Part shown: positions 9,525 to 39,805 of the stretch, piece after piece
Layout: each line of letters starts with the position of its first letter
How positions within the stretch are numbered: position 1 is the stretch's first letter
Assembly: GCA_020722885.1 (NCBI GenBank)
Contig: DYJZ01000003.1
Span: forward strand, 1-53,540
Direction: 5' to 3'
DNA length: 53,540 nucleotides
Origin: Thermoanaerobaculum aquaticum
GTDB lineage: Bacteria > Acidobacteriota > UBA4820
Position numbers and translations under genes: made by a program
The notes under the pieces: generated by a model
Told to the model about the DNA's origin: nothing
The model's database searches: none
Seen by the model: only the letters and a program-made list of their open reading frames with translations

Positions 9525-9698
9525 TGTCAAGACTATTTAGAAATACTCCGTTGCGAGAGCTCACTAACCGTGTCATTGCGAGTGCTCCTTCGGGGCAATC
9601 ACCCCCGAAGCAATCTTCAACTTTTCAACAAAGGAAGATCACTTCGTTTGCAAATACTTCGAAGTGAACCTCATTAGACATTATCAATAATTATGAGA
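9525..9698 (+). mobile_element. Stand-alone inner element with REP units (+ orientation)
   Basis: Starts TGTCAAGACTATTTAGAAATACTCCG, contains GTCATTGCGAGTGCTCCTTCG..CGAAGCAATCTT and ends GACATTATCAATAATTATGAGA. Confidence 0.7.
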
Positions 9699-9875
9699 AA
9701 TTTTTTCGTTATCCTTAACTTTTTATTATTTTTATCTAAAATGACAGGTGGAGGAGAAATGAAAAGAGGACATTTAAGATATAGCCTTTTTTTTAAACTT
9801 CAACAACGAGCAAAAAAAAGCAGATTGACAAAGCACAATGAGAAATATTGTCTATCCTGATATAAAGGAGGTCAA

Positions 9876-11033
9876 ATGAAAAAACTCTTTGTAACTATTT
9901 TTCTTCTTTCCTTTACTCTTTTTGTCTTTGCTAGCAATTGGAACGATAAGCTTTTTGAGGCAGTAAAAAATGGCGATTTAAAAACCGTTGAAAAAGCGAT
10001 AAAGAAAGGCACTGATGTTAATGCAAAGGACAAAGACGGCTTCACGGTGCTGATGAAGGCTGCTGCAAATGGTTACAAAGACATCTGCGAACTTCTTATT
10101 TCAAAAGGTGCCGATGTGAATGCAAAAAACAAAGATGGCAGGACAGCGCTGGACCTGGCAAAAGAAAAAAACAACAAGGCTATAGCAGAACTTTTGATTT
10201 CAAAAGGCGCAGCTGACCCAATGGCAAAGCCAACTGAGAAGCCGCCCATGGAACTGGCTAAATTAAATAAAAACAAGAAAGAAGAGCCCAAGGCAGAAAC
10301 TAAGGAACCGATACAGGTTGCCCAGAACGTTCCAAAAGATAGCAAGAAGCTGAGCCAGGACCAGGGGGCTGGAGAAGTAAAAAAGGAATTGACATTAACT
10401 TTGAAAGAATATGATGAGGTCGGTCAAGTAATGCAGAAACTCATCGAAAAGAAAGAGGTTCGGGAAGTTCATTTAAACGTTGAGCCTAAAGCCGGGAATT
10501 ATGTAACTCAAGCCGAAGAGTGGACAATCTCTTACGAGCAGGGGGGTCCTGGCAATATGTTTACTAAAGGTGTAATTACCAATAAGTATGGCATAGAAAC
10601 TTCTGCCGAGTTCTTTATTTCGATGGCAGTTACAAATTTGGCTATGGAAACTGATCAGGTAGACTGTACTTTCCTTAAAATTTTTACTGTCATAAGACCT
10701 GATGATAGAAGCCAAACTGCATTGATTATTTCAGATAAAGTTGGTGCTGTGTTTTTCACCCTTAATGGGAATAAGAGAATTGTGCGCACTGGGTTCAGTG
10801 CAGGTGACGCTAAAATCGATAAAACACCAAGAATCGATCTTGACGTTGGTTTTGACGAGTATGGCGGCTATATAGACGTGAATGTATCAGATGAAAATGC
10901 AAGACAGAAACTGGCTGATGGCAAGGAAGCTCGTTTGGTGTATAGTGCCGTTTACCCCACGAACGAAGATAATCCGATAGCTCGCCCCCGCATCAGGTTA
11001 CCAACCGTGTTTGTAATCGTGAATGGCGAATAG
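9876..11033 (+). CDS. Secreted ankyrin-repeat protein fused to an unrelated C-terminal region
   Basis: AAGGAGG RBS, signal peptide and about 3 ankyrin repeats (GADVNAKNKDGRTAL) up to residue ~112. The rest is unrecognised. Confidence 0.85.
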   Translation: MKKLFVTIFLLSFTLFVFASNWNDKLFEAVKNGDLKTVEKAIKKGTDVNAKDKDGFTVLMKAAANGYKDICELLISKGADVNAKNKDGRTALDLAKEKNNKAIAELLISKGAADPMAKPTEKPPMELAKLNKNKKEEPKAETKEPIQVAQNVPKDSKKLSQDQGAGEVKKELTLTLKEYDEVGQVMQKLIEKKEVREVHLNVEPKAGNYVTQAEEWTISYEQGGPGNMFTKGVITNKYGIETSAEFFISMAVTNLAMETDQVDCTFLKIFTVIRPDDRSQTALIISDKVGAVFFTLNGNKRIVRTGFSAGDAKIDKTPRIDLDVGFDEYGGYIDVNVSDENARQKLADGKEARLVYSAVYPTNEDNPIARPRIRLPTVFVIVNGE

Positions 11034-11874
11034 AATGGCGGGATCTTGGCAGAAAACTAGCCGTGAGGTTTCGGGAGCACCTTTAGATTCGGGAACATCT
11101 TTAGATTCTATTTTTGTGGTTTTACAGGCTACAGGTATGGACCGATCTTTATTTACCACTAATGGCACTATCGATAAAGCTAAACTAGTTGTTCTACTGG
11201 AAAAAGAATATGGTAAATATGGTCCCAAAAATGGTGGTTGGAGCGCCTTCGTTGATAGTTTAATAGAACTGAGTCAAAATCAAGCAAACGTTTCATTAGA
11301 CTACCAAAAAGCCCAAAAAGCCGCAGGTTTAACAGCTACGTTGGAAGAATCAATAGCAGCAAAGCTCGATGACGAGGCTGCAAAATCTACATCTCGAAAA
11401 GAGAAAATCCGTTTAGAAAATGAAGCTGCAAAACATGAAGGTTCAGCTACCTTTAATCGCACGAAAGAGAAAGCTACATGTCCTGAAGAAATAGCCAGAA
11501 TTGATAAGGACGAAAAACACTTTCTTTTCTTAATCGAAACGAATCAACTTAAAACTGCAGAAGACATTAGGAATTACATGCTCTCTACTTCTTACGCGTC
11601 GGAATTCAAAACTGTTGTTTCTGAGGTCAACCAAATAATATCTCAACTTACTGCCGAAGTGGGGCATAGTGCGGCAAGCCGACAGGAAAACTTAGGCATC
11701 CAATCGACAGAGGAAGGCATAAAGAGTGGCACAGAAAAAAGCACTGAAAAGGAAACCGCAATTGGTCCACTTCTAGATACTGGTGAAGCTGAGACCGAAA
11801 AAGGAAAAAAGAGCGACAAGAAGCCTCTGTGGGCCGAGTATATTCCAAAGAAGAACCACACGGAAGCTTCTTAG
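11023..11874 (+). CDS. Hypothetical helical protein
   Basis: 283-codon ORF overlapping the upstream stop, with no recognisable motif. Confidence 0.7.
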   Translation: MANRMAGSWQKTSREVSGAPLDSGTSLDSIFVVLQATGMDRSLFTTNGTIDKAKLVVLLEKEYGKYGPKNGGWSAFVDSLIELSQNQANVSLDYQKAQKAAGLTATLEESIAAKLDDEAAKSTSRKEKIRLENEAAKHEGSATFNRTKEKATCPEEIARIDKDEKHFLFLIETNQLKTAEDIRNYMLSTSYASEFKTVVSEVNQIISQLTAEVGHSAASRQENLGIQSTEEGIKSGTEKSTEKETAIGPLLDTGEAETEKGKKSDKKPLWAEYIPKKNHTEAS

Positions 11875-11904
11875 TTTCTATTAAGCTTGGAAAGGTGTTT
11901 TCAA

Positions 11905-12549
11905 ATGAAATTCTTCCTGGATTCAGCGAATGTGGAAAAAATCAAGAATGCAGTAGGATTAGGGCTGTGCGACGGCGTTACTACTAATCCAACGATAATA
12001 ATGAAGGAGGGAAAGGAGCAGAAATCCGTAATTTTGGAAATAGCAAAAATAATGAAGGGCCCGCTCAGCGTGGAAGGGATAGGGGAAACCGCTGAGCAGA
12101 TGGTAAAGGACGGGGAGGAATTCGCGAAATGGGCTCCTAATGCGGTTGTGAAGATTCCGATGACCGCGGAAGGGCTGAAGGCGGTAAGGATTCTGGAGAA
12201 AAAAGGGATAAAGACAAACGTTACTTTGGTATTTTCCGCTTCACAGGCGCTTCTTGCAGCAAAGGCAGGCGCATCTTTTGTCTCTCCTTTTGTCGGAAGA
12301 TTGGACGATATTGGGCAGGATGGGATGAAAGTAGTTGAGGATATCGCCCAGATTTACAGGAATTACGGATTCAAGACCGAAATAATAGTGGCTTCGGTAA
12401 GAAGCACAGCCCATGTGGAACGGGCTGCGAAATGCGGCGCACATATAGCTACAATTCCCCCTAAAGTGTTCGAGGAGATGTTTAGGCACCAGCTTACTGA
12501 CAGGGGAATAGCCAGGTTTTTGGAAGATTACAAAAAAGCCAAAAAATAG
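11905..12549 (+). CDS. tal: Transaldolase (short TalC/FSA-type family)
   Basis: FFLDSAN, DGVTTNPT, VVKIP (Schiff-base Lys) and TNVTL motifs. SVE and SPFVGR (Glu/Phe) indicate transaldolase rather than FSA. Confidence 0.93.
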   Translation: MKFFLDSANVEKIKNAVGLGLCDGVTTNPTIIMKEGKEQKSVILEIAKIMKGPLSVEGIGETAEQMVKDGEEFAKWAPNAVVKIPMTAEGLKAVRILEKKGIKTNVTLVFSASQALLAAKAGASFVSPFVGRLDDIGQDGMKVVEDIAQIYRNYGFKTEIIVASVRSTAHVERAAKCGAHIATIPPKVFEEMFRHQLTDRGIARFLEDYKKAKK

Positions 12550-12569
12550 CCTCCTTTTAAGCTCAATCC

Positions 12570-12624
12570 AAACCTTTTTATACATCTTTGCCTAAATTAG
12601 TTATTAGTTGATAACTAAAGGTGA
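12570..12624 (+). promoter_or_regulatory. Archaeal-type BRE/TATA box, operator palindrome and GGTGA RBS
   Basis: AAACC-TTTTTATA (12570-12582), perfect inverted repeat TTAGTTAT-6-ATAACTAA (12597-12618) and AGGTGA (12619-12624). Confidence 0.55.
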
Positions 12625-12629
12625 TTAAT

Positions 12630-12905
12630 ATGACTAAAGGAGTGCAGATAACAATCCAGCATTCGCCCACTCTCAATACAGTGCTCATGGTTGAAAATGC
12701 CATAAGGAACGCAAAGTACAGCGTGGTTACGGTCGCGCAGATAAAGAGGATGCTTCCGAAGCAGGTCAACCACAATACGCTCATGACGGTGCTTGCATAC
12801 CTCGAGGAGAGCAACAAGATAGCTGTAACCCTTAAAGGGATAACCTGGATTCACAATCCGAACCCGAACCTGAGAAAAGCGATTGCAAAGGGAATGGAAA
12901 TATGA
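12630..12905 (+). CDS. Small winged-helix-like protein, putative antitoxin of a DPANN-archaeal gene pair
   Basis: HSPTLNTVLMVE...LPKQV...LAYLEESNKI...GITWI resembles small proteins I recall from Woesearchaeota/Micrarchaeota. ATGA overlap with the next ORF. Confidence 0.65.
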   Translation: MTKGVQITIQHSPTLNTVLMVENAIRNAKYSVVTVAQIKRMLPKQVNHNTLMTVLAYLEESNKIAVTLKGITWIHNPNPNLRKAIAKGMEI

Positions 12906-13036
12906 AAACAGTAAGGTTGTGTTCCCCTGAAGCCGAGGAGGTTTACAAATATTTGAATGAGCATGCTGCGCACTCCAAGAGCGAGCGAACATTCCTCAAC
13001 GCAGTAAACAAGAAAATCGAATTAATGAAACAATGA
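12902..13036 (+). pseudogene. Truncated partner gene (putative RelE-like toxin N-terminus, 44 aa)
   Basis: MKTVRLCSPEAEEVYKYLNEHAAHSKSERTFLNAVNKKIELMKQ*. Translationally coupled to the upstream gene and stops exactly where repeat DNA begins. Confidence 0.55.
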
Positions 13037-13145
13037 GAGTCAGGACTTTAGTCTTGAATTGTCAAGTCTGAAACTGTAGTATCTATCTATAAAATAAAGC
13101 TATTCCTGGATTGCTAGGAAGCCTGAAACCTGTCATTCCGACTAC
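13037..13145. repeat. Degenerate second hairpin family (GTAG-REP/IS200-end-like)
   Basis: TCAGGACT-TT-AGTCTTGA hairpin at 13040-13057, and TTCCTGG..CTAGGAA. Confidence 0.4.
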
Positions 13146-13189
13146 ATCTTAGAAGCATTGACAAAGAAAGGAATCTTCCTCACTTCCAA

Positions 13190-13270
13190 AATAAGGAAGA
13201 TTGCTTCGAAAGACAAGGCTACGAAGGAGCACTCTCAATGACAGGTTACCTCTGCTCGCAATGACTGCTA
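13190..13270 (-). repeat. REP-like cluster (- orientation)
   Basis: GGAAGATTGCTTCG..CGAAGGAGCACTCTCAATGAC..CTCGCAATGAC. Confidence 0.8.
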
Positions 13271-13325
13271 AAAACTTAAAAATGAATTTGTATTGCTGCC
13301 TTTGCTCCTCAAAAGTTTCAAATGT

Positions 13326-13373
13326 TGTGGACTTCCACATTTTCTTGACTTTTTTGGGTTTTGCCTGTAATAT
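13326..13373 (+). promoter_or_regulatory. ackA-pta promoter with upstream palindrome
   Basis: TGTGGA-CT-TCCACA (13326-13339), then TTGACT-17-TAATAT (13345-13373). Confidence 0.5.
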
Positions 13374-13465
13374 AGGAACTCTTCCTGATGAGAAGTTTTT
13401 AAACTCAGAAGGAAACTTTTTATGGCTTTAAATCGCAATAAATTATTTTTTGAGGGGGAAGGAAT

Positions 13466-14713
13466 ATGAATGTTTTTGTTTTAAACACAGGAAGTTCTTC
13501 AGTTAAATTTCAGATTATCACAACCGATCTTGACCTTTTTGAGAATGACGCAGATGAAATGGTAGCAAAAGGTCTAATTGAAAGAATTGGAAAGGAAGAT
13601 GCAATTTTCACTTTAGAGGCAATTGGAAGTGAGCCCGTAAGAGGAACAGAATCAATACACGACCACAGAGAGGCAATTCTTAAAATCAAAAATTGGGTAG
13701 AATCAAAAGAGACAAAAATTAAAGGTGTTAATGGATGGAAAGACATTAACGCAGTAGGGCACAGACTTGTTCACGGTGGTGAAAAGTTTACAAGGTCTGT
13801 TCTCATTACTCCTGAAGTTATTGAGAAGATGGAGGAATGCTCAGACCTTGCTCCTTTGCATAACCCTGCAAATCTGAAGGGTGTTGCAGCCTGTTCTGAA
13901 ATTTTTCCTTCAACCATTCCTCAGGTTGGAGTTTTTGATACAGCCTTCCATTCCACTATGCCTGAAGAGTCCTACCTTTATTCAATCCCTTACGAATTTT
14001 ATGAAAAATACAGAATCAGAAGATACGGCTTCCATGGTACATCGCACAGGTATGTGGCATACAGATACAGAAAATTAACTCAAACCCCACGAGAAAAAAC
14101 AAACATAATTACAATTCATCTCGGTAATGGTTCTTCAATGACTGCAATAAAAAATGGATATTCAATCTTCAACAGTATGGGAATGACCCCTGTGGAAGGT
14201 CTGATTATGGGGACAAGAAGTGGAGATATTGATGCAGGAATTATTGAATATCTCTACAGAAAGGGAATGGGAGAGCTTCCCGATATAATGAATATCCTTC
14301 AGAAGAAGAGTGGAATGCTTGGTATTTCAGGAATTAGCAATGATATGAGAGATATAGAAAAAGCGGCTGCAGATGGGAACAAAAGGGCTCAACTTGCCCT
14401 TAAAATGTTCGCTTTCAGAGTAAAGAAATACATAGGTGCCTGTTTTGCCCAGATGGGTGGCACTGACGCTATTATTTTTACCGGTGGCATAGGTGAAAAC
14501 GATGTTCTTTCGAGGGAAATGATATGTGAAGGGCTGGAATGCCTCGGAATAATACTCGACAAAAACCTTAATAATCAGGCACAGAAGGGCAAATGTATGA
14601 GAATTTCAAAAGAGGAGAGTTCCTGTCATATTTGGGTAATTCCAACAAATGAAGAACTTGTAATTGCAAGAGACACTGTGAGAGTTGTAAAAGATGCTCC
14701 GAGAGAATGGTAG
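13466..14713 (+). CDS. ackA: Acetate kinase
   Basis: VLNTGSSSVKF, GHRLVHGG, LAPLHN, VFDTAFH, RYGFHGTSH, HLGNGSS and PTNEE motifs. Confidence 0.97.
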   Translation: MNVFVLNTGSSSVKFQIITTDLDLFENDADEMVAKGLIERIGKEDAIFTLEAIGSEPVRGTESIHDHREAILKIKNWVESKETKIKGVNGWKDINAVGHRLVHGGEKFTRSVLITPEVIEKMEECSDLAPLHNPANLKGVAACSEIFPSTIPQVGVFDTAFHSTMPEESYLYSIPYEFYEKYRIRRYGFHGTSHRYVAYRYRKLTQTPREKTNIITIHLGNGSSMTAIKNGYSIFNSMGMTPVEGLIMGTRSGDIDAGIIEYLYRKGMGELPDIMNILQKKSGMLGISGISNDMRDIEKAAADGNKRAQLALKMFAFRVKKYIGACFAQMGGTDAIIFTGGIGENDVLSREMICEGLECLGIILDKNLNNQAQKGKCMRISKEESSCHIWVIPTNEELVIARDTVRVVKDAPREW

Positions 14714-14722
14714 GAAGAAGAA

Positions 14723-15703
14723 ATGGCTGAAAATAATTTTGTAAAATCAATAAGAGAAAAGGCTTCAAAAAGATTCCTTAAGGTGGCTTTTCCAGATGCT
14801 GAAGACCTGAGAACTTTGGTTTGTGCAAGAACATTAATTGAAGAAAAAATAGGTGTTCCTGTTTTAGTAGGAAGTAGCGAAACAATTTTTAAAGTTGCAA
14901 ATGAAAACAGTGTGGATATTAAAGAAATTGAAATCATCGACCCCTTAAAGTCAGATTTAAGGAAGCAATTTTCAACTCTTCTTTTTGAAAAAAGAAAGTC
15001 AAAAGAAATGACTTACAATCAGGCAGAAGAAGCCACAAAAAATCCTCTCTACTTCAGCGGTTTGTTGCTTGCGACAAACAGAGTGGATGAAGTAGTGGGT
15101 GGAAATGTCTCCTCTACAGGAGATATATTAAGAGCCGCAATCCATACAGTAGGTTTTGCAGAGGGGATTAAGACCGTATCAAGTTATTTTATTATGGTTT
15201 TAAAAGAGAGAATGCTATGCTTTGCCGACTGTGCCGTAATTCCTGACCCAACAAATGAACAACTTGCCGACATTGCAATAACTTCTGCAAAAAGTTTTGC
15301 GGCAGTAACAGGTCTTGAGCCAAAAATTGCAATGCTCTCTTTCTCAACAAAAGGGTCTGCAAAACATCCGAGTGTTGATAAAGTTTTAAGCGCTGTTGAT
15401 ATTGTCAAAAAGAGGGCTCCTGAGCTTCTTGTTGATGGAGAAATGCAGGCAGATGCCGCATTGATTCCTTCCATCGGAGAAAGGAAATGCAAGGGAAGTC
15501 CTGTGGCAGGACAGGCAAATGTTCTTATTTTTCCAGACCTCGATGCAGGTAACATTTCATATAAACTTGTTGAAAGACTTGCTGGCGCCCTTGCTGTTGG
15601 ACCAATTATTCAGGGATTGGCTAAACCCTATTGCGACCTATCGAGAGGGTGTTCTTCTGATGATATGGTAAATGTCGCCGCCTTATGCTCATTGATGGTA
15701 TAA
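14723..15703 (+). CDS. pta: Phosphate acetyltransferase (short form)
   Basis: [34 protein letters not shown] and DLSRG motifs. Confidence 0.96.
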
Positions 15704-15713
15704 AGGAGATGAA

Positions 15714-18050: not shown

Positions 18051-18053
18051 TTT

Positions 18054-19151
18054 TTATTCTCCCTTGAATATCCTTTTAAAAAAAGATTCCTTTTTTTCAG
18101 ACTTTTTCATCTCAAGTTCATAAAGTTTTTGCCATAGTTCTTTTTCTTCTTTTGAAATTTTGTGAGGAGTTAGCAGGTTCACTTCAACAAAAAGGTCTCC
18201 ATTTCTTCTTCCGTTTATAGATGGAAGACCCATTCCTTCAATTCTAAAAATTTTTCCATTTTGTGTATTTTCTGGTATTTTCACTTTTTTCTTTTTGCCT
18301 TCAAGTGTTGTTATCTCATATTCAGTACCCAAAACCGCTTCCGGAAGGGATATGTTTATTTTGCAAAGCAAATCGGACCCTTTTCTTTTAAAAATAGGAT
18401 GCTCTTTTACGAAAACTGCTATATACAAATCACCCCTTCTTCCGCCTCTCAGGCCCATCTCTCCCTGGCCGGAAACCTTAAGCATTGTTCCATTTTCAAC
18501 TCCTAAAGGTATTTTCACCTTGATTGTTTTTGTCCTGTGAATTTTCCCCGTTCCTTTACAGGAAGAACATTTTTCTTTTGCTATATATCCTTCACCAGCA
18601 CACTGAGGACAGGTTCTGGAAACCGAGAAAAAGCCCTGCTGGTAAAAAATGTTTCCTCTCCCTTCACAGGCAGGACACCTTATCTTTTTTCCCTCCCTGG
18701 CACCGCTTCCGGAACAATCCTCACATATTTCTTCTAAAGGTATCTCTATCTCTTTTTCTAATCCCTTATAAACATCTTCAAGTGTAATTTCAATATCATA
18801 CCTTAAATCCGATCCTTTTTGCGGACCTCTTCTTCTTGAACCCCCAAAAATGTCTCCGAAACCGAAGAAGCTTCCAAAAAGGTCAGAAAAATCGTCAAAA
18901 ATGTCTGAATCCCAATTGATTCCTCCATAATTTCCTACTTTACCGTAAGCATCATATTGTGCCTTTTTCTGGGGGTCCCCGAGCACAGAATATGCCTCTG
19001 ATGCCTTTTTGAACATTTCTTCAGCCTCTTTGTTTCCTGGATTTCTATCAGGATGATATTTTAAAGCCGCTTTTCTATAGGCGGCTTTTATCTCTTCCTG
19101 AGTTGCATCTCTTGAGACGCCAAGAATTTCGTAATAATTTTCTGTGCTCAT
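18054..19151 (-). CDS. dnaJ: Chaperone DnaJ
   Basis: J-domain HPD, G/F region and four CxxCxGxG repeats. Confidence 0.97.
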   Translation of the reverse strand: MSTENYYEILGVSRDATQEEIKAAYRKAALKYHPDRNPGNKEAEEMFKKASEAYSVLGDPQKKAQYDAYGKVGNYGGINWDSDIFDDFSDLFGSFFGFGDIFGGSRRRGPQKGSDLRYDIEITLEDVYKGLEKEIEIPLEEICEDCSGSGAREGKKIRCPACEGRGNIFYQQGFFSVSRTCPQCAGEGYIAKEKCSSCKGTGKIHRTKTIKVKIPLGVENGTMLKVSGQGEMGLRGGRRGDLYIAVFVKEHPIFKRKGSDLLCKINISLPEAVLGTEYEITTLEGKKKKVKIPENTQNGKIFRIEGMGLPSINGRRNGDLFVEVNLLTPHKISKEEKELWQKLYELEMKKSEKKESFFKRIFKGE

Positions 19152-21025: not shown

Positions 21026-21048
21026 TTTTTATCTCTCCTGTTCTCCTC

Positions 21049-21648: not shown

Positions 21649-21650
21649 GT

Positions 21651-22727: not shown

Positions 22728-22733
22728 TTAATT

Positions 22734-22762: not shown

Positions 22763-22849
22763 TACCGGTTTCCATCCAATTCTTGCTTTTTTATTATTTA
22801 ACTTATTACCTGATGTATTACGCAGACTTGCCTTAAAAAATTGTACATT

Positions 22850-25380: not shown

Positions 25381-25513
25381 GTTTCACCTCCCAGACTAAA
25401 GTTTACAACAAGAGAGAAAAAATAACAATTGCCTGTAAAGTCCCCTAACATACTGGACTTTAAGGGGTGAAACCATGAGGAGCTACAATGCCACTGCGAT
25501 CCCTTTTTTAACC

Positions 25514-25602
25514 TGTCATTGCATGTGCTCCACCTCCTGCGTCATTGCGAGCAGACGTAACCAGTCATTGCGAGCCTTCTCTAAAATTGTCTTTGCGAGC
25601 CC
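25514..25602 (+). repeat. Four tandem REP half-motifs (GTCATTGCGAG-like)
   Basis: GTCATTGCATG, GTCATTGCGAG twice and GTCTTTGCGAG, with short variable spacers. Confidence 0.75.
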
Positions 25603-25691
25603 TTCTTCTTTTTTATATTTCTTTAAGGAATAAAAATTATTATTGCTTTTGAAAAATTTTTATTAGATAATAGTTTTTGAGGTTTATGATT

Positions 25692-28120: not shown

Positions 28121-28141
28121 ATTACATTATGGAGTAAAACA

Positions 28142-28495: not shown

Positions 28496-28497
28496 AA

Positions 28498-30249: not shown

Positions 30250-30301
30250 CACTTGATTTTTTTGTTAGAATTGTTGTAGCCTTTATATGAGGAGAAAAAC
30301 T

Positions 30302-31399: not shown

Positions 31400-31417
31400 C
31401 CTTTTTTACCTGTAAAG

Positions 31418-32034
31418 CACATCTGTCCAAAATAAATTTTGACAGAACCATATAAGAAGTCAAGAAAAAAAATGTCAAGACTATTTAGAAATACTCCGTT
31501 GTGAGTGCTCACTAACCGTGTCATTGCGAGCCCTCTCTAAAATTGTCATGCGAGTGCTCCTTCGTAGCTTCCTTCCGCGAGGCAATCTTCCTCTTCCCAA
31601 ACAAAGGAAGATCACTTCGTTTGTAAAAGCCTCGAAACATCCCTCGTGATGACAGTTAATTGTTATTAACGCAGTCATTGCGAGTGCTCCTTCGAAGGAA
31701 AGCCCCCCGAAGCAATCTTCCTCTTGCTCACAAAGCTGAAACGGAAAGCCTTAGAGGAGTGGTTCAATAGAGGTTTGCAAAAATATTTTAATCTTTTTGC
31801 GGTTTTTCCACTGCCATTTTAGAGAACATTATCATATAGCTTTGACAGGGAACTTATGAACCATCAAACCCGAAACCTATCACTCGAGCCTTTTAGAGAA
31901 CTAATTGGACAGCATAATGACATATACAGGCATAAAAACAGTGAGCCTCATTTTCAAGCCTTCCTAAAAGCCGCCCAGAATCCTCAATTTCTCAGGATTC
32001 CGTTTCCGCTTTCAAATTATCCTCGATAGCAGTG
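31418..32034 (+). mobile_element. Complete nested composite MITE (inner element 31473-31847) with possible 8-bp target duplication
   Basis: CACATCTGTCCAAAATAAATT...AATTATCCTCGATAGCAGTG. Flanks CTGTAAAG and CTGTAACA. Colinear with 5380-5864. Confidence 0.82.
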
Positions 32035-32045
32035 CTGTAACAAGT

Positions 32046-32384: not shown

Positions 32385-32395
32385 CGTTATTCTCC

Positions 32396-33817
32396 TTAGT
32401 TTATTTCACTTTTCTGTTTAGCCCACATCGTATTTTCTATTGTAATAAAAGAGTAACCTTTTTCCCGCAATTTTTCTATAAGATCTTTTAAAATTGTATC
32501 TGCCCTCAACTCCCCTTCCCTTTCAGAACCGAGATGCATAAGGATAATACCACCATCAAGAGACTTTTCCCCTTTTTCAGCCTCTTTCAGAACTCTCATT
32601 AGTATTTCTCTCGGCTCCCTAAAAAGAGGATCTGATTTATCAGCCACCCAGTCAAGGGTGTCAAGTTTTGGTGTCCAGTGAACATGTCTGAACCCTGCCT
32701 CGTAAGCCCATTTTAAGATCTCGGAATTTTTTTCTCCAAAAGGAGCCCTCCAGTAGGGAGACATCTTTTTTCCTGTTACCGATTCGTAAAGGGCTTCTGC
32801 TTTTTTAAGTTGTTCAATTACCGTCTCTTTTTTAACTCCAGGAAGAGTCGCCTGCTTTTGGTTAAAACTGTATGTTGTAAGATGGGGATGGCTATATGTG
32901 TGGTTTCCTATAACATTTCCTGCCGATGCAAGTTTTCGTACTTTTTCAGGGTATCTTCTAATGTATTCCCCCGTCAAAAAAATTGTTGCTTTTACATTTG
33001 ATTCTTCAAGCGTTTGGATTATACTGTCTGTGGCATTGTCGTTGCTCCCACCATCAAAAGTTAAAAGGATTGTCTTTTTTCCTTCTTTTGCCTGTTTAAT
33101 ATCGAGGAATGAAGAAAGAACGGGACTGAAGAAAGGCTCTTCCCTTTCAGGAATTCCAAAAATTGATGGATTTGCGATTAGCTGGACTGTTACTGCTTTT
33201 GAATATGCGTTGTTGCCATAATTATCAAAATATCTTACCTGTAAAATACTCTTTTTTTCTTTAAGTGGAACTTTTTCAAAAACGAATTTTCCATCGTGGC
33301 TAAAGACAGCATCAACCCTCTCTGAATTAACATATAAACCAACCATAGATTCTTTTGGGGCAATTCCTGAAACCATAATTTCGCTTTCATTTACTGAGCT
33401 GTTTTCGGAGGGATATTCAATCTCAATTGACGATGGAGAGGACCAGTCAGGTGTAGCATTTTTATTACCCTTTTTGATTTCTGGCGCTAAGGATTTTATT
33501 TCTTTTTCATCAATTGATTCAATCCATTGTCTGTAAAGGAAAAAGGAAAGCAAAATAAAAAAGATAAGAACTGGATAAAAGACCATTCTAAAGGCATAAA
33601 ACTTACCTTTTTTCTTTATAAAATCACTAACTTTTTCCTGCATATCCTTTTTCTTAAAATCATTGAAGCATTTCTGAGAACAAAAAATGTGACCTTCTAA
33701 CCTTATCTGGCACTTTGGACAAATGTATTTTTTGCAGTTGAAACACCTTCTCTTTGCCTCAGAAAGTGGATGTTTATAGCAGGTGTGTATTTGCCTGATT
33801 TTTTCTTTTGAAGACAC
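32396..33817 (-). CDS. Membrane-anchored polysaccharide deacetylase (NodB) with N-terminal Zn-finger
   Basis: CYKH/CFNC/CPKC/CSQKC, a TM helix, Ig-like region, LTFDGG, GNHTYSH, RAPFG and ILMH. Confidence 0.88.
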   Translation of the reverse strand: MSSKEKIRQIHTCYKHPLSEAKRRCFNCKKYICPKCQIRLEGHIFCSQKCFNDFKKKDMQEKVSDFIKKKGKFYAFRMVFYPVLIFFILLSFFLYRQWIESIDEKEIKSLAPEIKKGNKNATPDWSSPSSIEIEYPSENSSVNESEIMVSGIAPKESMVGLYVNSERVDAVFSHDGKFVFEKVPLKEKKSILQVRYFDNYGNNAYSKAVTVQLIANPSIFGIPEREEPFFSPVLSSFLDIKQAKEGKKTILLTFDGGSNDNATDSIIQTLEESNVKATIFLTGEYIRRYPEKVRKLASAGNVIGNHTYSHPHLTTYSFNQKQATLPGVKKETVIEQLKKAEALYESVTGKKMSPYWRAPFGEKNSEILKWAYEAGFRHVHWTPKLDTLDWVADKSDPLFREPREILMRVLKEAEKGEKSLDGGIILMHLGSEREGELRADTILKDLIEKLREKGYSFITIENTMWAKQKSEIN

Positions 33818-34791
33818 TATTTAAGTTCCTCTTTTTTCAGGTCTATTGACCATTTTCTACCAAAAATATTCCAGAAGACTTTTTTTAATCTGGCTAAAAA
33901 TATCTTTTTTCGTATTTCAGAAATTTTTTCTCCTGCAACAGAAAATCCTTTTTCAAAAAAAACATCAATTTTGTCAAATTCTGTCCAGTGTAGTTCCTCA
34001 AGTTGCGGTTTGACTATAACATCTGCAAACCTCAACTGATACATTTTAGCCGTCTCAGCAAGAATCATTGTGGCTCTTATCTGGCTTTTGCTTCCAGAAA
34101 CTTTTTCATCCTCCTTTAGAGGAGGAACTATTGAAGAGACATCAACAGCGATAACCACATCAGCACCTAATTTAAAAGCATCTTCAACGGGAATCTGATT
34201 GACATAACCACCGTCAATCAATATTTTGCCCTCTATTTTTACTGACGGGAAAATTCCTGCTATCGCTATACTTGCTTTTACCGCGTCAGAAATTTTTCCA
34301 TCTGTAATTATGACCTTTTTTGCATTGTTAAGATCTGAAGCAATAATTGCAAGCTTTACTGGCAGTTCTTCTAAACATTTGTCTCCAAAAAGAGATTCTA
34401 TGCTTTTTTCAACTTTCTCTCTCGGAATGTAACTCTCCGTTGTTGCTGTTTTAATCGCAAAACTTCCAAGAAGAAAAATCCTTTTTATTTTTTTAAGAAA
34501 TCCAGGTTTAGTTTCGGTTGAAACCATCATATTCCTTACTTTTTCAAAATATTTATGGTCAAACCCCTCTGAAGAAAAAAAATTGGAAAGTGTTGAGTAG
34601 GTCAAAAGAGCACTTTTATTCATACAATAAACTGCTCCAACAAGCGCTCCTATTGATGTTCCTACAATCATATCAATTTTGATGCCCTCTTTTTCAAGAA
34701 ATGCAAGAACTCCAAGATGGGCAAGCCCTCTTGCTCCTCCTCCTCCAAGAGCAAGGGCGACATTTGGCCTAAAAAATTTTCTATTAGCCAT
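33817..34791 (-). CDS. Patatin-like phospholipase
   Basis: GGGGARG, GTSIG and DGG motifs. Confidence 0.93.
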   Translation of the reverse strand: MANRKFFRPNVALALGGGGARGLAHLGVLAFLEKEGIKIDMIVGTSIGALVGAVYCMNKSALLTYSTLSNFFSSEGFDHKYFEKVRNMMVSTETKPGFLKKIKRIFLLGSFAIKTATTESYIPREKVEKSIESLFGDKCLEELPVKLAIIASDLNNAKKVIITDGKISDAVKASIAIAGIFPSVKIEGKILIDGGYVNQIPVEDAFKLGADVVIAVDVSSIVPPLKEDEKVSGSKSQIRATMILAETAKMYQLRFADVIVKPQLEELHWTEFDKIDVFFEKGFSVAGEKISEIRKKIFLARLKKVFWNIFGRKWSIDLKKEELK

Positions 34792-35524
34792 TTTCGCTCT
34801 CTTCTGTGAGTTTTAAAAACACAGTTTCAAGGTCTTTATCTGTCGTTTTTGATTTTTCAATCAGTTCTTCCATTGTTCCTTCAGCAACAAGTTTTCCTTT
34901 ATTTATTATTCCAATTTTGTTGGAAAGTTCCTCAGCAACACCGAGAGAATGAGTGGATAATATTAGAGCAGTTCCTTGCGAAGAAATTTTTTTGAAAAGT
35001 TCCCTCACTTTTCTTGACGATTTTGGATCGAGCCCAACCATCGGTTCATCAATAAGAAGAAGTTTAGGGCTATGAAGAATAGATGAAACTATAACAAGTT
35101 TTTGTTTCATTCCGTGAGAATACCCCTCAATCAGACGGTTAATGCTATCACGAAGTTCAAAAAAATCTAAATAGTAATCTGCCTTTCCCTCCCAGTTTAT
35201 GATACCCCTTATTTCCGATATTAAATTTAGATATTCCCACCCTGTCAGCTTTTCATAAAGATAGGGTCTATCAGGAATATAAGCCATTGATTTTCTAAAT
35301 TCAACTTTATCGAGTCCTACCTCTTTACCGTCAATTTCCACATAACCTTGATCAGGCTTAAGAATTCCTGAGCATATCCTGAGGGTTGTTGTCTTTCCAG
35401 CACCGTTGGGACCCAAAAAACCATATATCTCCCCTTCTTTGACATTTATATTGAGACAACTTACAGCATTTACATTTCCAAAACTCTTTGAGATATTGAC
35501 TATTTTTAAAATATCTTCAGCCAT
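34784..35524 (-). CDS. ABC transporter ATP-binding protein (ABC-2 type)
   Basis: GPNGAGKTT, YSHGMKQ, IDEP and STH motifs. Confidence 0.95.
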   Translation of the reverse strand: MAEDILKIVNISKSFGNVNAVSCLNINVKEGEIYGFLGPNGAGKTTTLRICSGILKPDQGYVEIDGKEVGLDKVEFRKSMAYIPDRPYLYEKLTGWEYLNLISEIRGIINWEGKADYYLDFFELRDSINRLIEGYSHGMKQKLVIVSSILHSPKLLLIDEPMVGLDPKSSRKVRELFKKISSQGTALILSTHSLGVAEELSNKIGIINKGKLVAEGTMEELIEKSKTTDKDLETVFLKLTEESENG

Positions 35525-35587
35525 TTACGCTCCGAAATGAAAAGTATAAATTATTTTTATTAAAAAATGTAATTGTTTAATTTCTTG

Positions 35588-36000
35588 TGTCATAACAATA
35601 TGATAATGTCCTCTTCTAAACTAATTAGAAATGTCCTCGAAAATGGCAGTTTAGGAACTCCAACGGGAAAAGATACTGGGGCTGTCTTCCTAAAAAAGCG
35701 GTCATTACAAGCAGCCGTTAACCTGTCATTGCGAGCACTCCTTCGAAGCCTTCGCTTGCGAAGCAATCTTCCTTATGAAAAAAAGCAGTCACTGTGAGAG
35801 AGCCTTCATGGACTTGCCAAACGAAACAATCTTCCCTATTTTTTAAGTAAGGACGATTCCTTTCTTTGTAAGCGTTTCGAAGCTTGAATCGGAATGATAT
35901 GTTTCACCAAGTTAGCCTTCGTAGGTTCAGCAAGCGAAGCAGTCTTCCTCATCCCATCGCAAAGAAATTCCCCTCTTCAGGGATGGCTTGCACCGCAAGA
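35588..36000 (+). repeat. IS-like TGT end followed by a degenerate REP cluster (+ orientation)
   Basis: TGTCATAACAATATGATAATGTCC..TAATTAGAAATGTCCTCGAAAATGGCAGT matches the reverse complement of 5612-5678. GTCATTGCGAGCACTCCTTCG..CGAAGCAATCTTCC at about 35724-35772. Confidence 0.72.
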
Positions 36001-36138
36001 CAGGACTATCCCCTTTTGTTTAAACCATCTTTCGTAACTGTGATTCACAAATCACCCTTGCACAAGATTATCCGGTTGCAAGGTGAAGGCGTTTACTCAA
36101 AAACACAGGTCTTATAAATGCTTGAAGGCTCGGAGCTT

Positions 36139-37591
36139 TTACTCATATTTTGCTCCCTTGAGGTAAACGGAAACAACAGTTCCTTTGTCGATTTGGCTTT
36201 TGATTTCTATCCTGCCTCCGTGCTGTCTTATGATCTCCCTGCTGATGCTCAGCCCCAAACCGATGCCGCCGCTTGCTCTGGAACGTGATTTGTCGACCCG
36301 GTAAAAACGATCGAAAACCTTCTCCAATTCTCCTTCCTGGATGCCGATCCCCGTGTCCGCTATTTCCGCAATGATGAACTCGCCCTCCTTTCTGATGCTG
36401 ATGTCGATTCTTCCGTCAGGGACATTATATTTTATGGCGTTATCCACAATATTGACGAAGGCCTCAGGAAGTGCCTCTGAATCACCATACACCGAATATT
36501 TGCTACCGTCTGCAGGCATGGTGATGAGGATCCTTTTTTCATCAGCAAGGGGAGAAAGTAGTTTGAGCGTTTTATCGATTATCCCGTTCAGGGAGATTTC
36601 CTCCATCTGCAAGATCAGCCGATCGGAGCTAAAACGCGCCAGCGTCATCAGTTTCTCAATGAGCAGGGACATCATCCCTGCAGTGTTGAGAATAGCCGTC
36701 AGGGCTGCCCTGTATTCTCCTGGTTCCCGCTCCTTTCTGAGACTCACCTCTGTTTGACTGATGATGACCGAAAGAGGCGTTTTCAGTTCGTGGGACGCAT
36801 CCGATACAAACTGTCTCTGACGGTTGAAAGCCATCTCCAGGCTACTGAAAACTCTGTTGAAGGAATCGGCAATCCTTTTTAACTCATCAGCAATTTTTTT
36901 ATCCGCGATCCTTTCCGAAAGGTTTGTTTCTGAAACCCTGTCTATCGCATCCGAGATGTTCCTGATTGGTTCAAGCGCCTTTTTGGCAATAAAGAATCCT
37001 CCTGCAGCGGAAAAGATCACGACAAAAAAAACAGTTACTGCCAGAACCATTCGGAATCTACTTAAAATGGATGTTTTTTCCTCTATCGCCTCAGCGCACT
37101 GGATGACAATGTCATATCGTGGTGTTTTTATCTCATTTACTCCTTCTTTTGGCATAGGAAAATTGACCAGTCGAACTTTTCTGCCCTTAAGAAAAGTCGT
37201 CTGGAAATCTGCCGAATGGACAACAGGATAAAAAGGAAGCTCTGAATCTCCGAGTGATGCCGATTTTTCAATCGTGGTTCCATCAACTCTCCTGATTTGA
37301 AAGTAGTTTGTTGAAGTTGGGGAACTGTATTCCCACATGATTTCATCAGAAAAGTTAAATTCGGTTTCCAATTCATCTTCACGAATGAATGTGGCATCAT
37401 CGGAAACATCCTCAATATCTTCACTAATTAATGTTGCAAGAGCCTTTGCCCTGGAAAGGAGAGACGAATCAATAAAGGCATAGACGATCCGGTGCAGGCT
37501 AAAATAGAGGATGTTCCCCATAACTGAGAGGGTGACAAGCAAAATTGCAAGATAGAACAGAACAATTCTAACTTTGATGGAAGAAACCATC
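36139..37591 (-). CDS. Membrane sensor histidine kinase (HAMP-HisKA-HATPase, CusS-like)
   Basis: Two TM helices, DASHELKTPL, NIVDNAIKYN, DTGIGI, FDRFYR and GIGLGLS. Confidence 0.95.
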
Positions 37592-38260
37592 TTACTCCTT
37601 AAGCATATATCCAGCGCCACGCAGGGTGTGGATCAGTTTTTTTCTAAACCCCCTGTCCACCTTCTTGCGGATGCGGTTGATAAAGACATCTATGACATTG
37701 CTGTCGAGGTCAAAGTCGTGGTCGTAGAGATGCTCTGAGATGTTCGTTCGGCTGAGCACCCTGTTTTTGTTGAGCGCCATATACTCAATGAGGGCATATT
37801 CCTTTGCAGAAAGCAAGATGGTTTTCCCTTCTCTTTTTACTTCATGAGTAGCCATGTCAATAAGAAGGTCTCCTATCTCTATGGCTGAGCTTTTAACTCC
37901 TGAATCCCTTCTTAATAATGCCCTTATTCGTGCCAGGAGCTCTTCAAAAGAGAAGGGTTTTGTCAGATAGTCGTCAGCGCCGCTGTCCAGTCCTGATACC
38001 TTGTCCATAACTGTACCCTTAGCAGTGAGCATAAGAACAGGAGTCTTAATCCCTGCTTTACGGATTCTTTTAAGGATGGTTATTCCATCGATAACCGGCA
38101 GCATGATATCCAGGATTATGAGGTCCGAGGGCTCATTTTCAGCCATGAAAAAGCCATCCTCGCCATTGTATGCGATATCCACAGCATACCCCTCCTCCTC
38201 AAGTCCTTTCTTCACGATATCAGCAAGTGGCTTCTCGTCTTCCACAATCAATATACGCAT
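37592..38260 (-). CDS. OmpR-family response regulator (CusR-like)
   Basis: VEDE, LDIMLP, GADDYLTKPF, SNVIDVFI and TLRGAGY motifs. Confidence 0.96.
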   Translation of the reverse strand: MRILIVEDEKPLADIVKKGLEEEGYAVDIAYNGEDGFFMAENEPSDLIILDIMLPVIDGITILKRIRKAGIKTPVLMLTAKGTVMDKVSGLDSGADDYLTKPFSFEELLARIRALLRRDSGVKSSAIEIGDLLIDMATHEVKREGKTILLSAKEYALIEYMALNKNRVLSRTNISEHLYDHDFDLDSNVIDVFINRIRKKVDRGFRKKLIHTLRGAGYMLKE

Positions 38261-38263
38261 AAT

Positions 38264-38631
38264 TTATTTTACTCCTTTCTTCCTCCTGAATGCTACAAGT
38301 GTAAAGACGAATCCGATAAGGATGAGCTCGCCAATAGTGCTTGAAGCACATTATTCGGGTTAAGCCTGACTATCCTTTTTATCTCAAAATGTGACATTGT
38401 GCTACTTATGGGGATATTGTAGTTTTTGTCTTCAGCCTTTATATAAGCCACATAACTTCCATAGTCAATCAGGCACATCTGCCATTTACCCTCGTCTGTC
38501 TCGTGCGTTTGTAAGGAACAGGTAACTAATCACACTCAATATGTCCGATGTGAGGGATATACCATAAAAAAACCCTTCGGGGTTAAAATGCTCTCCCTTA
38601 TCTCCTTTTGCATTATATATGCTGTCTTCAT
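38264..38631 (-). pseudogene. Patchwork of gene remnants (membrane-protein start and membrane-protein tail)
   Basis: Strong RBS and MKTAYIMQKEIRESILTPKG (ABC permease-like start), then frameshifts. A separate tail IGELILIGFVFTLVAFRRKKGVK* lies just before the regulator. Confidence 0.45.
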
Positions 38632-38726
38632 AGCGTCCCCTCCTTTGTGGATTTAGAAGATATCTTCTATAATTCCTTTTTTAACTTTGCCGCTTATGAT
38701 CATCTGTTGCCTCTTTATTTAAATGG

Positions 38727-38750
38727 AGGGGCGGAAAAAATTCCGCCCCT
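38727..38750 (-). terminator. Hairpin after the PepSY gene
   Basis: Perfect 10-bp stem AGGGGCGGAA-AAAA-TTCCGCCCCT with a weak U tail. Confidence 0.65.
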
Positions 38751-38758
38751 TGATGTCA

Positions 38759-39382
38759 TTACCTTTCACCTCCTTCTTCATCTTCGTTTTCTGAATTTTC
38801 CTCATCGTCGTCGTCATCATTGTCATCGTTGTTCTGTTTCAAAAGCTTGCCGGTTTCAGCATCGATCTCCACATCCGCAATCTGTTTGTCAGTCTTGACG
38901 ATCTTCACACCATAAACGAGATGACCATCTTCGTTTTCCAGTTCAACCTCCAGGACCTTTCCCGGCACCACCTGAAGAGCCGCCTTGACCGCATCATCGA
39001 GGGATACTTTCGCCTTTGCCGCGTATTTAGCCTCATTTTCGCCGTCATTGCGTTCATTGTCCAGTTTCAAAAACTTGCCGGTTCCAGCATCGATCTTCAC
39101 ATCCACAATCTGCCTGTCAGCCTTGAGGATCTCCACATCATAAACGAGATAACCATCCTCGTTTTCCAGTTCAACCTCCAGGACCTTTCCCGGCACCACC
39201 TGAAGAGCCGCCTTGACCGCATCATCGAGGGACTCTTTCGCCATCCTTGCATATTCGGCCTCATCGTTTCCTTTCAGTGCGATACTGCCGGTCAATTTGG
39301 GCTGCTGGGAACTGACTGTAAGTCCGCCAATCGCCATAACTGTCACAACTACAACACCGATGAGCATTACTGTTTTTCTCAT
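38759..39382 (-). CDS. Exported protein with two PepSY domains and an acidic tail
   Basis: AAGGAGGTGA RBS, signal peptide and duplicated SLDDAVKAALQVVPGKVLEVELENEDG.LVY.V.I...V.IDA.TGK. Confidence 0.9.
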   Translation of the reverse strand: MRKTVMLIGVVVVTVMAIGGLTVSSQQPKLTGSIALKGNDEAEYARMAKESLDDAVKAALQVVPGKVLEVELENEDGYLVYDVEILKADRQIVDVKIDAGTGKFLKLDNERNDGENEAKYAAKAKVSLDDAVKAALQVVPGKVLEVELENEDGHLVYGVKIVKTDKQIADVEIDAETGKLLKQNNDDNDDDDDEENSENEDEEGGER

Positions 39383-39436
39383 TTTTATCACCTCCTTTCC
39401 GTATAAAATCACAGACTTTTTTCAGCCTGCAATGTT

Positions 39437-39469
39437 ATTATAGCAATGCAAAGATTACAGGAACATGAA
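39437..39469 (-). promoter_or_regulatory. PepSY promoter with putative OmpR-family box
   Basis: TTCAT-6-GTAAT (11-bp period), 11 nt upstream of an extended -10 TGcTATAAT. Confidence 0.5.
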
Positions 39470-39524
39470 CGAAACAAAAAATATTTTCCCCGTCATAAAT
39501 ATACAATGACTGATTAGGATTGAA

Positions 39525-39805
39525 AAGAAGAAGATTGCTTCGCAGGCAAATGCTCCGAAGGAGCACTCGCAATGACAGATTACGCTTGCTCGCAATGACT
39601 GCGCTATTAACAATTGACTGTCATCACGAGTGTGGCTTCGAGGCACGGACAAACGAAGTGATCTTCCTTTGTTTGGGAAGAGGAAGATTGCTTCACGGGA
39701 GAATGCCTCGAAGTGAAATTCGTAATGACAGGGTTAAATTGTAAAGTGGAAGATTGCTTCGAGAGACTTTCCCACGAAGGAGCACTCGCAATGACAGATT
39801 ACGTC
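39525..39805 (-). repeat. REP-like cluster (- orientation, three or more units)
   Basis: Repeated GAAGATTGCTTC...GAAGGAGCACTCGCAATGAC. Aligns with 1-160 and the reverse complement of 31540-31725. Confidence 0.85.

Follow-up and report, generated by a model that had tools for sequence, protein, structure and literature searches.

REP sequences have a conserved GTAG head, and enterobacterial BIMEs combine Y- and Z-type REPs into mosaics whose orientation alternates. REPINs and REP sequences have been described together with RAYT transposases (PMC3116915, Bertels & Rainey 2011; PMC3337134), and these sources portray REPINs as short palindromic units, present between genes in hundreds of copies, typically as two inverted units folding as one long hairpin and expanded in a lineage-specific manner. 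Gene-moving composites bounded by miniature transposons (MITEs) are a further point of comparison: known cases are TIME-COMPs (PMC13367494) and blaPER-1, which lies between two 439-bp MITEs (PMC3934969).

The repeats described here, from a 53,540-nt stretch of Thermoanaerobaculum aquaticum DNA (the window), share all of these REPIN traits. On the other hand, they differ from REPINs in having no RAYT (Y1) gene in this genome or in the repeat-sharing congener (G001), and in that many units lie inside IS-type MITEs with terminal inverted repeats; moreover, the GTAG head of REPs is absent from the units. As in BIMEs, the clusters combine at least two unit subtypes (A, B, C, D) in alternating orientation with conserved linker modules, but sequence and phylum are different, and nothing here points to binding by gyrase, IHF or Pol I.

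The unit is a 48-nt hairpin composed of the head GTCATTGCGAG, 24 nt and GAAGCAATCTTCC, with a conserved outer stem. Across 206 distinct near-full-length units, 96-99% of cells in the stem comparison were paired, and the subtypes were set apart by compensatory changes: pair 6:41 was T:A in 148 units and C:G in 45, while pair 7:40 was G:C in 146, A:T in 47 and C:G in five. An iterated profile search found ~278 units in 136 clusters genome-wide, the commonest multi-unit arrangement being a tail-to-tail inverted doublet (folding z-scores of -3.4 to -5.6), and the clusters were overrepresented in divergent and convergent gaps (51/85 gaps vs 167/549). The GTCATTGCGAG-type motif was counted 169 times here, 36 times in G001, not at all in a second congener (G002) and 0-19 times in 38 other relatives, which indicates a recent lineage-specific burst. 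Within the window the head (at most one mismatch) matched 15 times against 0.41 expected, on the plus strand at 5482, 9572, 25541/25564/25589, 31520/31674 and 35725, and on the minus strand at 80/148, 13232/13255 and 39566/39589/39785. Thus the repeat heads are where a preliminary description of this DNA had placed them, but its assertion that each cluster holds a single orientation fails: diverged opposite-strand units occur at 1-33(+), 9631-9672(-), 13130-13181(+), 31603-31655(-) and 39618-39670(+), and genome-wide 63 of the 82 multi-unit clusters contain both orientations.

Many units sit within a gene-free MITE with TGT...ACA ends, whose arms adjoin 63 of the 136 clusters, and this inner MITE is often nested in a second, outer MITE with CAC...GTG ends and 9-bp target duplications. 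Among 30 complete outer MITEs, the duplication was perfect in 17 and matched at no fewer than eight of nine positions in 21; one 123-bp copy carries an internal deletion. The TGT ends of the inner MITE are conserved among copies; the free copies inspected by eye show no consistent target duplication. These elements resemble IS-derived MITEs in being non-coding, 120-670 bp long and nested, with terminal inverted repeats, 9-bp target duplications (outer element) and internal-deletion variants; they differ in that autonomous partners are not in the assembly, that hairpin units form an expandable array within the inner element, and that one arm type adjoins sigma-70-like promoters at a constant distance of 5 nt.

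Two complete nested MITEs in the window are associated with no island: one at 5380-5864(+), running from CACATCTGTCC to GACAGCAGTG with a TGT-ended inner element at 5435-5678 and one unit at 5481-5531, and one at 31418-32034(+), with its inner element at 31473-31847 and units at 31545-31594(+), 31603-31655(-) and 31672-31724(+). A truncated one occupies the contig start (1-261, minus strand; units 1-33(+), 40-92(-) and 108-159(-), inner left arm with its terminus at 186-205, outer left end reaching 261), and a further inner left terminus lies at 53373-53392(+), 150 nt from the contig end. Head-only fragments (GTCATTGCGAG plus ~12 nt, repeated), with no full unit, are present at 25500-25610(+), between nrdR and a deoxynucleoside kinase gene. 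MITE termini here include TGTCAAG and TGTAGAAG; the inner left terminus TGTCAAGACTATTTAGAAAT occurs five times in the window, once at 9525, and 35588 is an inverted copy of the other inner terminus, ATTATCATAT..TGACA. The IS-like TGT ends with which both islands were said to open are therefore real repeated termini, but they are opposite termini of one element family (left end at 9525, inverted right end at 35588) and no common opening signal.

Island 1 encodes, all on the plus strand, an ankyrin-repeat protein (9876-11033), a 283-aa protein of no assigned function (11023-11874) and a fructose-6-phosphate aldolase/transaldolase (11887-12549; TIGR00875, 292 bits vs a cut-off of 246) whose gene is nearest to Micrarchaeota archaea at 63-70% identity; small ORFs of no assigned function follow to ~13040. 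Its interior (9672-13130) has a G+C content of 0.415, and that of island 2 (35950-39528) 0.443, vs 0.377 for the genome, so that in the window the +/- cluster pairs do enclose compositionally atypical DNA, as proposed. The proposal that the islands are foreign or strain-specific also held: G001 offers an empty site for island 1, in which the MFS gene and ack lie ~130 nt apart with no repeat. Window positions ~9490-13338 are missing there, both flanking MITEs included, and the island borders fall within tens of bases of the breakpoints.

The flanks of island 1 had been interpreted as inverted halves of one doublet, with captured DNA as the spacer. We read each instead as a small element that is complete in itself and has two ends of its own, the inner ends being diverged and read by eye. 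The left one (9525-9697, plus strand) is a short inner-type MITE comprising a left arm (9525-9572), a type A unit (9571-9618, +), an inverted type B unit (9631-9672, -) and, last, 23 nt that by eye agree with the inner right terminus at ~20 positions; across 137 nt this flank shares 81% identity with a complete short copy from contig C70. The right one (minus strand, from 13060 or 13074 to 13339) is a MITE whose left arm is of an alternative type, LA2 (13266-13339, with the minus-strand terminus TGTGGAAGTCC), followed by a head fragment (13255-13265, -), a type A unit (13193-13244, -) and a type C unit (13130-13181, +). On C70 both element types stand side by side ~500 bp apart without cargo. 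Also on C70, 650 nt of repeat elements with no additional gene correspond to just 51 nt in G001, as expected if repeats insert independently of islands. Likewise the repeat cover at all four island borders (9525-9700, 13046-13356, 35588-35953 and 39500-39805) consists of blocks that each recur contiguously elsewhere without cargo.

Island 1, and perhaps others, could instead have travelled as passenger in a composite with a MITE at each end: two TGT-ended elements would have inserted close together or come to lie on either side of foreign DNA, and a transposase acting in trans would have used the outermost termini (9525 and 13339) to carry the 3.8-kb block to its present place, 5 nt ahead of the ack promoter-like TTGACT-N17-TAATAT that begins at 13345. 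The outer ends of the block are indeed two intact, inward-facing TGT termini, and the block as a whole is absent from G001. TTTTC stands just outside both ends (9520-9524 and 13340-13344) with a single TTTCC in G001, as a single insertion would look, and no clean target duplication was found around either flank element alone, which counts against their being separate insertions; five matching nucleotides in T-rich DNA, however, carry little weight. With the known MITE-bounded composites the block shares genes between two small non-autonomous elements, outer ends that face inward and absence from a relative, while the bounding elements here are unlike, carrying different arms, the sole flanking direct repeat is 5 nt, and there is neither a second copy nor a sign of movement, each island being single-copy in the genome. 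Moreover, LA2/LA pairs that face inward within 12 kb number five, and all but the 1226-bp pair were looked at: the shortest two, at 499 and 511 bp, leave no room for genes, another surrounds DNA that G001 conserves, and the window's pair alone holds an island. The lack of a consistent target duplication in free inner copies and of a matching transposase in the assembly also speaks against the composite, which we consider rather unlikely.

Island 2 fits such a composite less readily: on its left the terminus is of the opposite kind, and on its right there is no terminal arm past 39805. The left flank (35588-35953, plus strand) contains an inverted inner right-arm end (35588-35660) and three units, all (+), at 35723-35774, 35786-35835 and 35910-35950; its first ~190 nt recur as a contiguous block on contigs C15, C102 and C22. 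The right flank (39520-39805, minus strand) carries units at 39528-39578(-), 39618-39670(+), 39679-39731(-) and 39745-39797(-), of which a B+/A- pair folds into one long hairpin. Between them, on the minus strand, are genes for a heavy-metal-type sensor kinase (36139-37620) and an OmpR-type response regulator (37592-38260), both just below the TIGR01386/TIGR01387 cut-offs, and for a protein with two PepSY domains (38759-39412). The interior gave just two short weak DNA matches among 12 relatives and none in two congeners, for which divergence or incomplete assemblies could also account. Neither island contains a recombinase gene.

All four island borders in the window carry repeat blocks, against only seven interior cluster sites by our own count, which looks non-random. 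Genome-wide, however, cluster orientation was random: consecutive pairs were ++ in 21 cases, -+ in 15, -- in 15 and +- in 11 (n = 62). Orientation relative to the GC-rich side outside the window (43 vs 30, Wilcoxon p 0.27) and the GC atypicality of genes beside cluster-bearing gaps (no greater than elsewhere, p 0.19 and 0.25) gave null results whose power is limited, since G+C content indicates foreign origin only weakly. In four cases out of five (C76, C74, C70, C15), an independent +/- pair encloses DNA 74-76% identical in G001, although only part of the genome is comparable because the relatives are fragmented assemblies. Clusters bracket three of 30 GC-rich segments on both sides, all + then - and all with type A units pointing inward, as the composite and the doublet readings would have it; two of the three are the cases that prompted the idea, and the third is C1:26820-30444.

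These results bear directly on the mechanism first put forward, in which a REPIN-like doublet is processed by a RAYT (HUH Y1) enzyme and its spacer has grown by 3.5-4 kb of captured DNA. Inverted doublets do exist among the units, and their stem is conserved and covaries, but each flank already has a doublet of its own, orientation is random, an outcome that the description itself had named as refuting its idea, and most +/- pairs elsewhere hold native DNA. Furthermore, Y1_Tnp matches were found in 34 of 41 genomes searched, most of them without the repeat, and in neither this genome nor G001, the two richest in repeats. This reading is largely refuted and highly improbable, and cargo capture by the repeats is not supported; a weaker version, that they mark variable or integration-prone spots, is compatible with the data.

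We therefore favor, as the probable explanation, that the repeats amount to ordinary selfish DNA located in variable spots, that the islands were acquired horizontally and not as repeat cargo, and that the +/- layout of separate small elements around them is coincidental. The 48-nt hairpin, in ~278 copies and mostly in tail-to-tail doublets like REPINs or BIMEs, is the basic unit, about half of its clusters lying within, or adjoining arms of, the often nested TGT...ACA MITE; these elements probably spread recently in the lineage. Insertions may have persisted in the few tolerant spacers that so compact a genome offers, for instance between operons or at the edges of recently gained DNA, the islands probably having arrived first and the MITEs later.

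Recombination between dispersed repeats, which would then mark synteny breakpoints with no dedicated capture system, might also have produced islands or rearrangements. At C1:26820-30444, G001 joins both flanking genes to sequences that lie on C22 here, one of them 80 nt from a nested MITE, and the G001 contigs with the flanks of island 2 end in or near repeat-like sequence, as contigs of any short-read assembly do. Repeat copies are 70-90% identical across 150-280 nt, a poor substrate for RecA-type recombination; inverted repeats would yield inversion, not insertion; and the repeat-free empty site in G001 shows no resident copy at the target. This seems improbable to about the same degree as the composite. 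Less probable still is an assembly artefact in which islands from another part of this genome, or from a co-abundant one, were joined across high-copy units. Independent contigs of the probable source run stop at both clusters of island 1 (8000-9554, 9624-12378, 12395-13197 and 13274-15000), none bridges the ~70-nt unit cores, and many contigs of the assembly end in these repeats; yet the depth of the island (23.3-26.5) comes close to that of its flanks (27.3), there is a contig across each of the flank-to-arm and island-to-unit junctions, and the assembler broke at other repeats instead of joining them. Moreover, with differences of 10-30% between units, reads are able to span them.

Searches of the assembly, which is 91% complete, for other candidate enzymes returned a single GIY-YIG match within a 591-aa frame, no ISNCY model above cut-off and no transposase matching the MITE termini. 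A separate multi-copy IS has a C-terminal transposase remnant 68% identical to an NCBI 'IS630 family transposase' protein, and TA adjoins its end in all nine copies compared. This IS630-like element is unrelated to the window repeats and is inserted into two outer-MITE left arms.

The heads of the repeat (GTCATTGCGAG) matched the window 15 times against 0.41 expected, at the positions and on the strands reported in the preliminary description. Each head opens a 48-nt hairpin unit (GTCATTGCGAG, 24 nt, then GAAGCAATCTTCC), and an iterated profile search of the whole genome of Thermoanaerobaculum aquaticum (1.90 Mb in 107 contigs, 37.7% GC, 91% complete; the window is one entire contig, C80) recovered 278 units, grouped in 136 clusters; 11 clusters lay in called ORFs, the units being otherwise intergenic. 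The best matches of the EF-Ts of this genome were Acidobacteriota-labelled records (52-65% identity, the next being 45%), and housekeeping genes were spread throughout the window contig. The outer stem of the unit changed in pairs, giving four subtypes: ATTGC/GCAAT (A), ATCAC/GTGAT (B), ATTCC/GGAAT (C) and ACTGC/GCAGT (D). In a set of 206 distinct units of near-full length, stem pair 6:41 was T:A in 148 and C:G in 45, stem pair 7:40 was G:C in 146, A:T in 47 and C:G in 5, and pairing at these two positions was 96-99%. The clusters had been described as holding units of a single orientation; inverted type B and C units were found beside type A in those very clusters, and genome-wide 63 of the 82 multi-unit clusters were of both orientations. 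The commonest multi-unit architecture was the tail-to-tail A+B- pair (18 times as a pure doublet, otherwise within larger mixes), and doublets formed long hairpins with folding z-scores of -3.4 to -5.6.

Both the units and their carriers belong to known kinds: the units are REPIN/BIME-like, and the carriers are IS-type miniature transposons (MITEs). Like REPINs and BIMEs, the units are abundant, short, intergenic and palindromic, and their inverted pairs fold as one hairpin. Conserved arms surround many of the clusters. The outer MITE, with terminal inverted repeats CACATCTGTCC.. versus ..GACAGCAGTG, was found in 30 complete copies of 123-670 bp (by module, 42 full left and 31 full right), with a 9-bp target duplication that was perfect in 17 and agreed at 8 or more of 9 positions in 21 of the complete copies; the two copies in the window scored only 3/9 each. 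The inner, TGT-ended MITE (TGTCAAGACT.. versus ..CTTTGACA) sits within the outer one and contains the units; by eye, its free copies had no consistent target duplication. Inner arms adjoined 63 of the 136 clusters (both sides in 28, left only in 25, right only in 10), and an alternative left arm, LA2 (TGTAGAAGTCC..), was present in 47 copies. Neither of the complete nested MITEs at 5380-5864 and 31418-32034 contained an ORF of 90 aa or more.

On the other hand, two features set these repeats apart from REPIN-RAYT systems. A GTAG-type head beside the palindrome is a feature of such systems, whereas the unit consensus here starts ..CTGTCATTGCGAG and lacks GTAG. Moreover, the RAYT-type enzyme that had been proposed to act on the repeats was not borne out, since RAYT/Y1_Tnp (PF01797) had no match in this genome (a 91%-complete assembly) or in its congener G001, and across 41 genomes searched a match occurred in 34 whether or not the repeat was present. 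As for parent elements, no autonomous IS with the MITE ends (CACATCTGTCC; TGTCAAG/TGTAGAAG) was found in the assembly, such ends were not found on the contig of the sole DDE_Tnp_1 ORF (C105), ISNCY models gave nothing over cut-off, and the single GIY-YIG match lay inside a 591-aa frame. Multi-copy IS elements are typically left unassembled in genomes of such kind. An IS630 parent for the outer MITE was considered and rejected: the 38 nt in common are IS630 copies inserted into MITE arms, and other IS630 copies have unrelated flanks. This separate IS630-family element has TA next to its end in 9 of 9 copies listed, two copies inside outer-MITE left arms, and nine contig ends (C58, C15, C67, C34, C31, C7, C35, C5 and C55) breaking in its unassembled interior, and accounts for many of the contig ends.

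The hairpin motif (GTCATTGCGAG-N24-GAAGCAATCT) recurred in public genomes, with at least 116 stretches (loci L035-L150) whose records bear the labels of ten or more phyla or candidate phyla, among them Omnitrophota, Chloroflexota, Planctomycetota, Patescibacteria, Desulfobacterota, Nitrospirota and Acidobacteriota. In ten examples (including L113) the arms were conserved and the core was a locally complementary hairpin varying from copy to copy; in several (such as L080, L078 and L045) a tail-to-tail inverted partner then followed. Of these 116 loci, 64, from other phyla, were scanned for neighbouring genes; a small GIY-YIG gene adjoined one (L059) and an IS481-type integrase another (L055), the remainder being next to ordinary genes. 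Within the genus, the G001 unit was mainly of the D stem variant ACTGC/GCAGT (36 matches at up to 2 mismatches) and the congener G002 had none, so that these repeat families turn over fast. In the window and eight other loci no Rfam family except tRNAs reached its gathering score, other matches being at chance level (E up to 5); in the literature, supplementary files being outside the scope of the search, the head string and its reverse complement matched only unrelated papers among the matches listed. This cross-phylum 48-nt hairpin, like the spacing between LA2 and promoters and the archaeal-type aldolase in a bacterial island described below, may deserve follow-up.

A cargo-capture system, in which + and - clusters would be the halves of an inverted doublet closing around foreign DNA, was not supported. 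Only 11 of the 62 consecutive cluster pairs genome-wide were +- (++ 21, -+ 15, -- 15), which argues against a tie between this pairing and islands. Nor did +/- pairs enclose atypical DNA as a rule: of the five independent pairs with a spacing of 1.5-8 kb, four contained DNA conserved in G001. The fifth, on contig C1, enclosed strain-specific GC-rich DNA; in G001 the flanks of this locus were joined to sequences that lie on another contig here (C22), and a nested MITE is 80 nt away from one of these sequences. The locus is a synteny breakpoint at repeats. Of 73 cases outside the window, type A units faced the side of higher GC in 43 (p 0.27), genes adjoining cluster-bearing gaps were no more atypical in GC than other genes, and clusters lay preferentially in divergent and convergent gaps. 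On C44 a left and a right module are separated by 4.2 kb; a possible further cargo between them was discarded, as the element ending at 18184 is complete (497 bp) and has its own duplication, and the genes in the interval are of housekeeping type. Large surface-type genes (RHS/teneurin-like, Big-domain and PKD-domain; C33:1-5393, C103:320-2956 and C41:376-3891), at 47-52% GC in this 37.7% GC genome, were each bordered by a repeat cluster on one side and by the contig end on the other.

At the two islands of the window, the flanks were likewise not halves of one doublet. The left flank of island 1, the ankyrin-repeat/aldolase genes, is at 9525-9697 and consists of a left arm, an A unit followed by a B unit in inverted orientation, and an end that resembles the right terminus, matching a complete short copy on C70. 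The right flank of island 1, from 13060 or 13074 to 13339, is an element of the LA2 type and contains a C+/A- doublet of its own. Each flank of island 2 (35588-39805; sensor kinase, response regulator and PepSY genes) recurred on other contigs as a contiguous block. The TGT ends said to open both pairs are MITE termini, though not one shared end: 9525 is an inner left terminus and 35588 an inverted inner right terminus. On C70 the two flank element types of island 1 stand side by side, ~500 bp apart and gene-free, and at this locus G001 has 51 nt where the present genome has 650 nt of repeat elements, so that these elements insert on their own.

The DNA between the pairs was indeed compositionally atypical, as the preliminary description had it (GC 0.415 in island 1 and 0.443 in island 2 versus 0.377 for the genome), and both islands differed from the relatives. 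In G001 (contig C294) the MFS gene leads to ack across a repeat-free ~130 nt, so that window ~9490-13338 is absent there. Against 12 relatives, the interior of island 2 gave just two DNA matches, both short and weak, and other genes stood beside its flanking genes in G001 and G002. The 'archaeal DNA' remarked on in island 1 holds for the fructose-6-phosphate aldolase gene (11887-12549): Micrarchaeota and other DPANN archaea made up the top 9 of the 80 matches listed, at 63-70% identity, and the gene was absent from 3 of 3 same-family relatives and 52-57% identical in same-order relatives. This gene is a candidate for transfer from archaea to bacteria; at L163, one of the Micrarchaeota loci, the aldolase gene has an ankyrin-repeat gene as its neighbour. 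The closest record to the island 2 kinase was Desulfobacteraceae-labelled (50-53% over the full length), with an unclassified record reaching 59% in its best segment. None of the donor-like loci scanned (80 aldolase and 80 kinase) carried these repeats.

The LA2 arm stood at a regular distance from promoter-like sequence. A -35-like hexamer lay 4-6 nt off the arm end in 28 of 47 copies (at 5 nt in 23 of them), followed by a -10-like hexamer at 17-19 nt in 24 of 47, versus rates of 5.8% and 0.3% at random positions. These sigma-70-like promoters read outward, for example at 13329-13380 towards ack; this promoter is also in the empty site of G001 and is thus native there. The spacing could reflect target choice, selection or a part of the terminus itself.

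It is improbable, if not negligibly so, that island 1 was carried in as a composite bounded by MITEs. Several observations keep this reading alive: i) repeats occur at all four island borders in the window; ii) the doubly bracketed GC-rich segments are + then - in 3 of 3 cases; iii) G001 lacks the entire 9525-13339 block; and iv) TTTTC stands just outside both outer termini (9520-9524 and 13340-13344) versus a single TTTCC in G001, a match of 5 nt in T-rich DNA. On the other hand, the island interiors had no DNA-level match at another site, either in this genome or among 12-40 relatives. An intact terminus was found at both extremes of the island 1 block (9525 and 13339); for island 2 there was one at 35588 and none beyond 39805. 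We likewise doubt that pairs of TGT-ended MITEs would form a vehicle, promoter-targeting, gene-carrying and non-autonomous, whose inward-facing arms bracket foreign DNA (with the Micrarchaeota-like aldolase gene) and drop the block 5 nt upstream of a sigma-70-type -35 box. Were the composite reading true, MITE pairs would be shown to mobilise genes of metabolism in an uncultured lineage. Recombination at the repeats is about as improbable as the composite. On the most probable reading, the islands offer a warning case: the selfish repeats of a compact genome gather in few permissive spacers, including the borders of newly acquired DNA, and such build-up can mimic capture.

It is very unlikely that misassembly joined the islands here: independent contigs of the probable source run do end at both unit cores, but island depth in that run (23-26.5) matched flank depth (27.3). 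Run X1, whose contigs were compared with the window, had no contig linking ~9500 to ~13340; run X2 left 10340-12913 without cover, and two further runs (X3 and X4) were almost empty for the window. Odd joints in X1 and X2 ('opposite strands' at 9559/13244 and 9626/13188; skips from 10126 to 13254 in X1 and from 9674 to 13039 in X2) were rejected as evidence, since their sides of 24-35 letters fit other repeat copies.

Within island 2, the PepSY gene has an internal tandem duplication of 228 bp at 38829-39242 (1.8 copies at 91% identity) that corresponds to its two PepSY domains. The CitMHS transporter gene (4099-5361) and the MFS gene adjoining island 1 (8332-9501) are each split into two ORFs and are thus probably pseudogenes. 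In run X2, the contigs from a close relative showed 1-nt indels at positions 8856 and 8951, and the MFS gene may be intact there.
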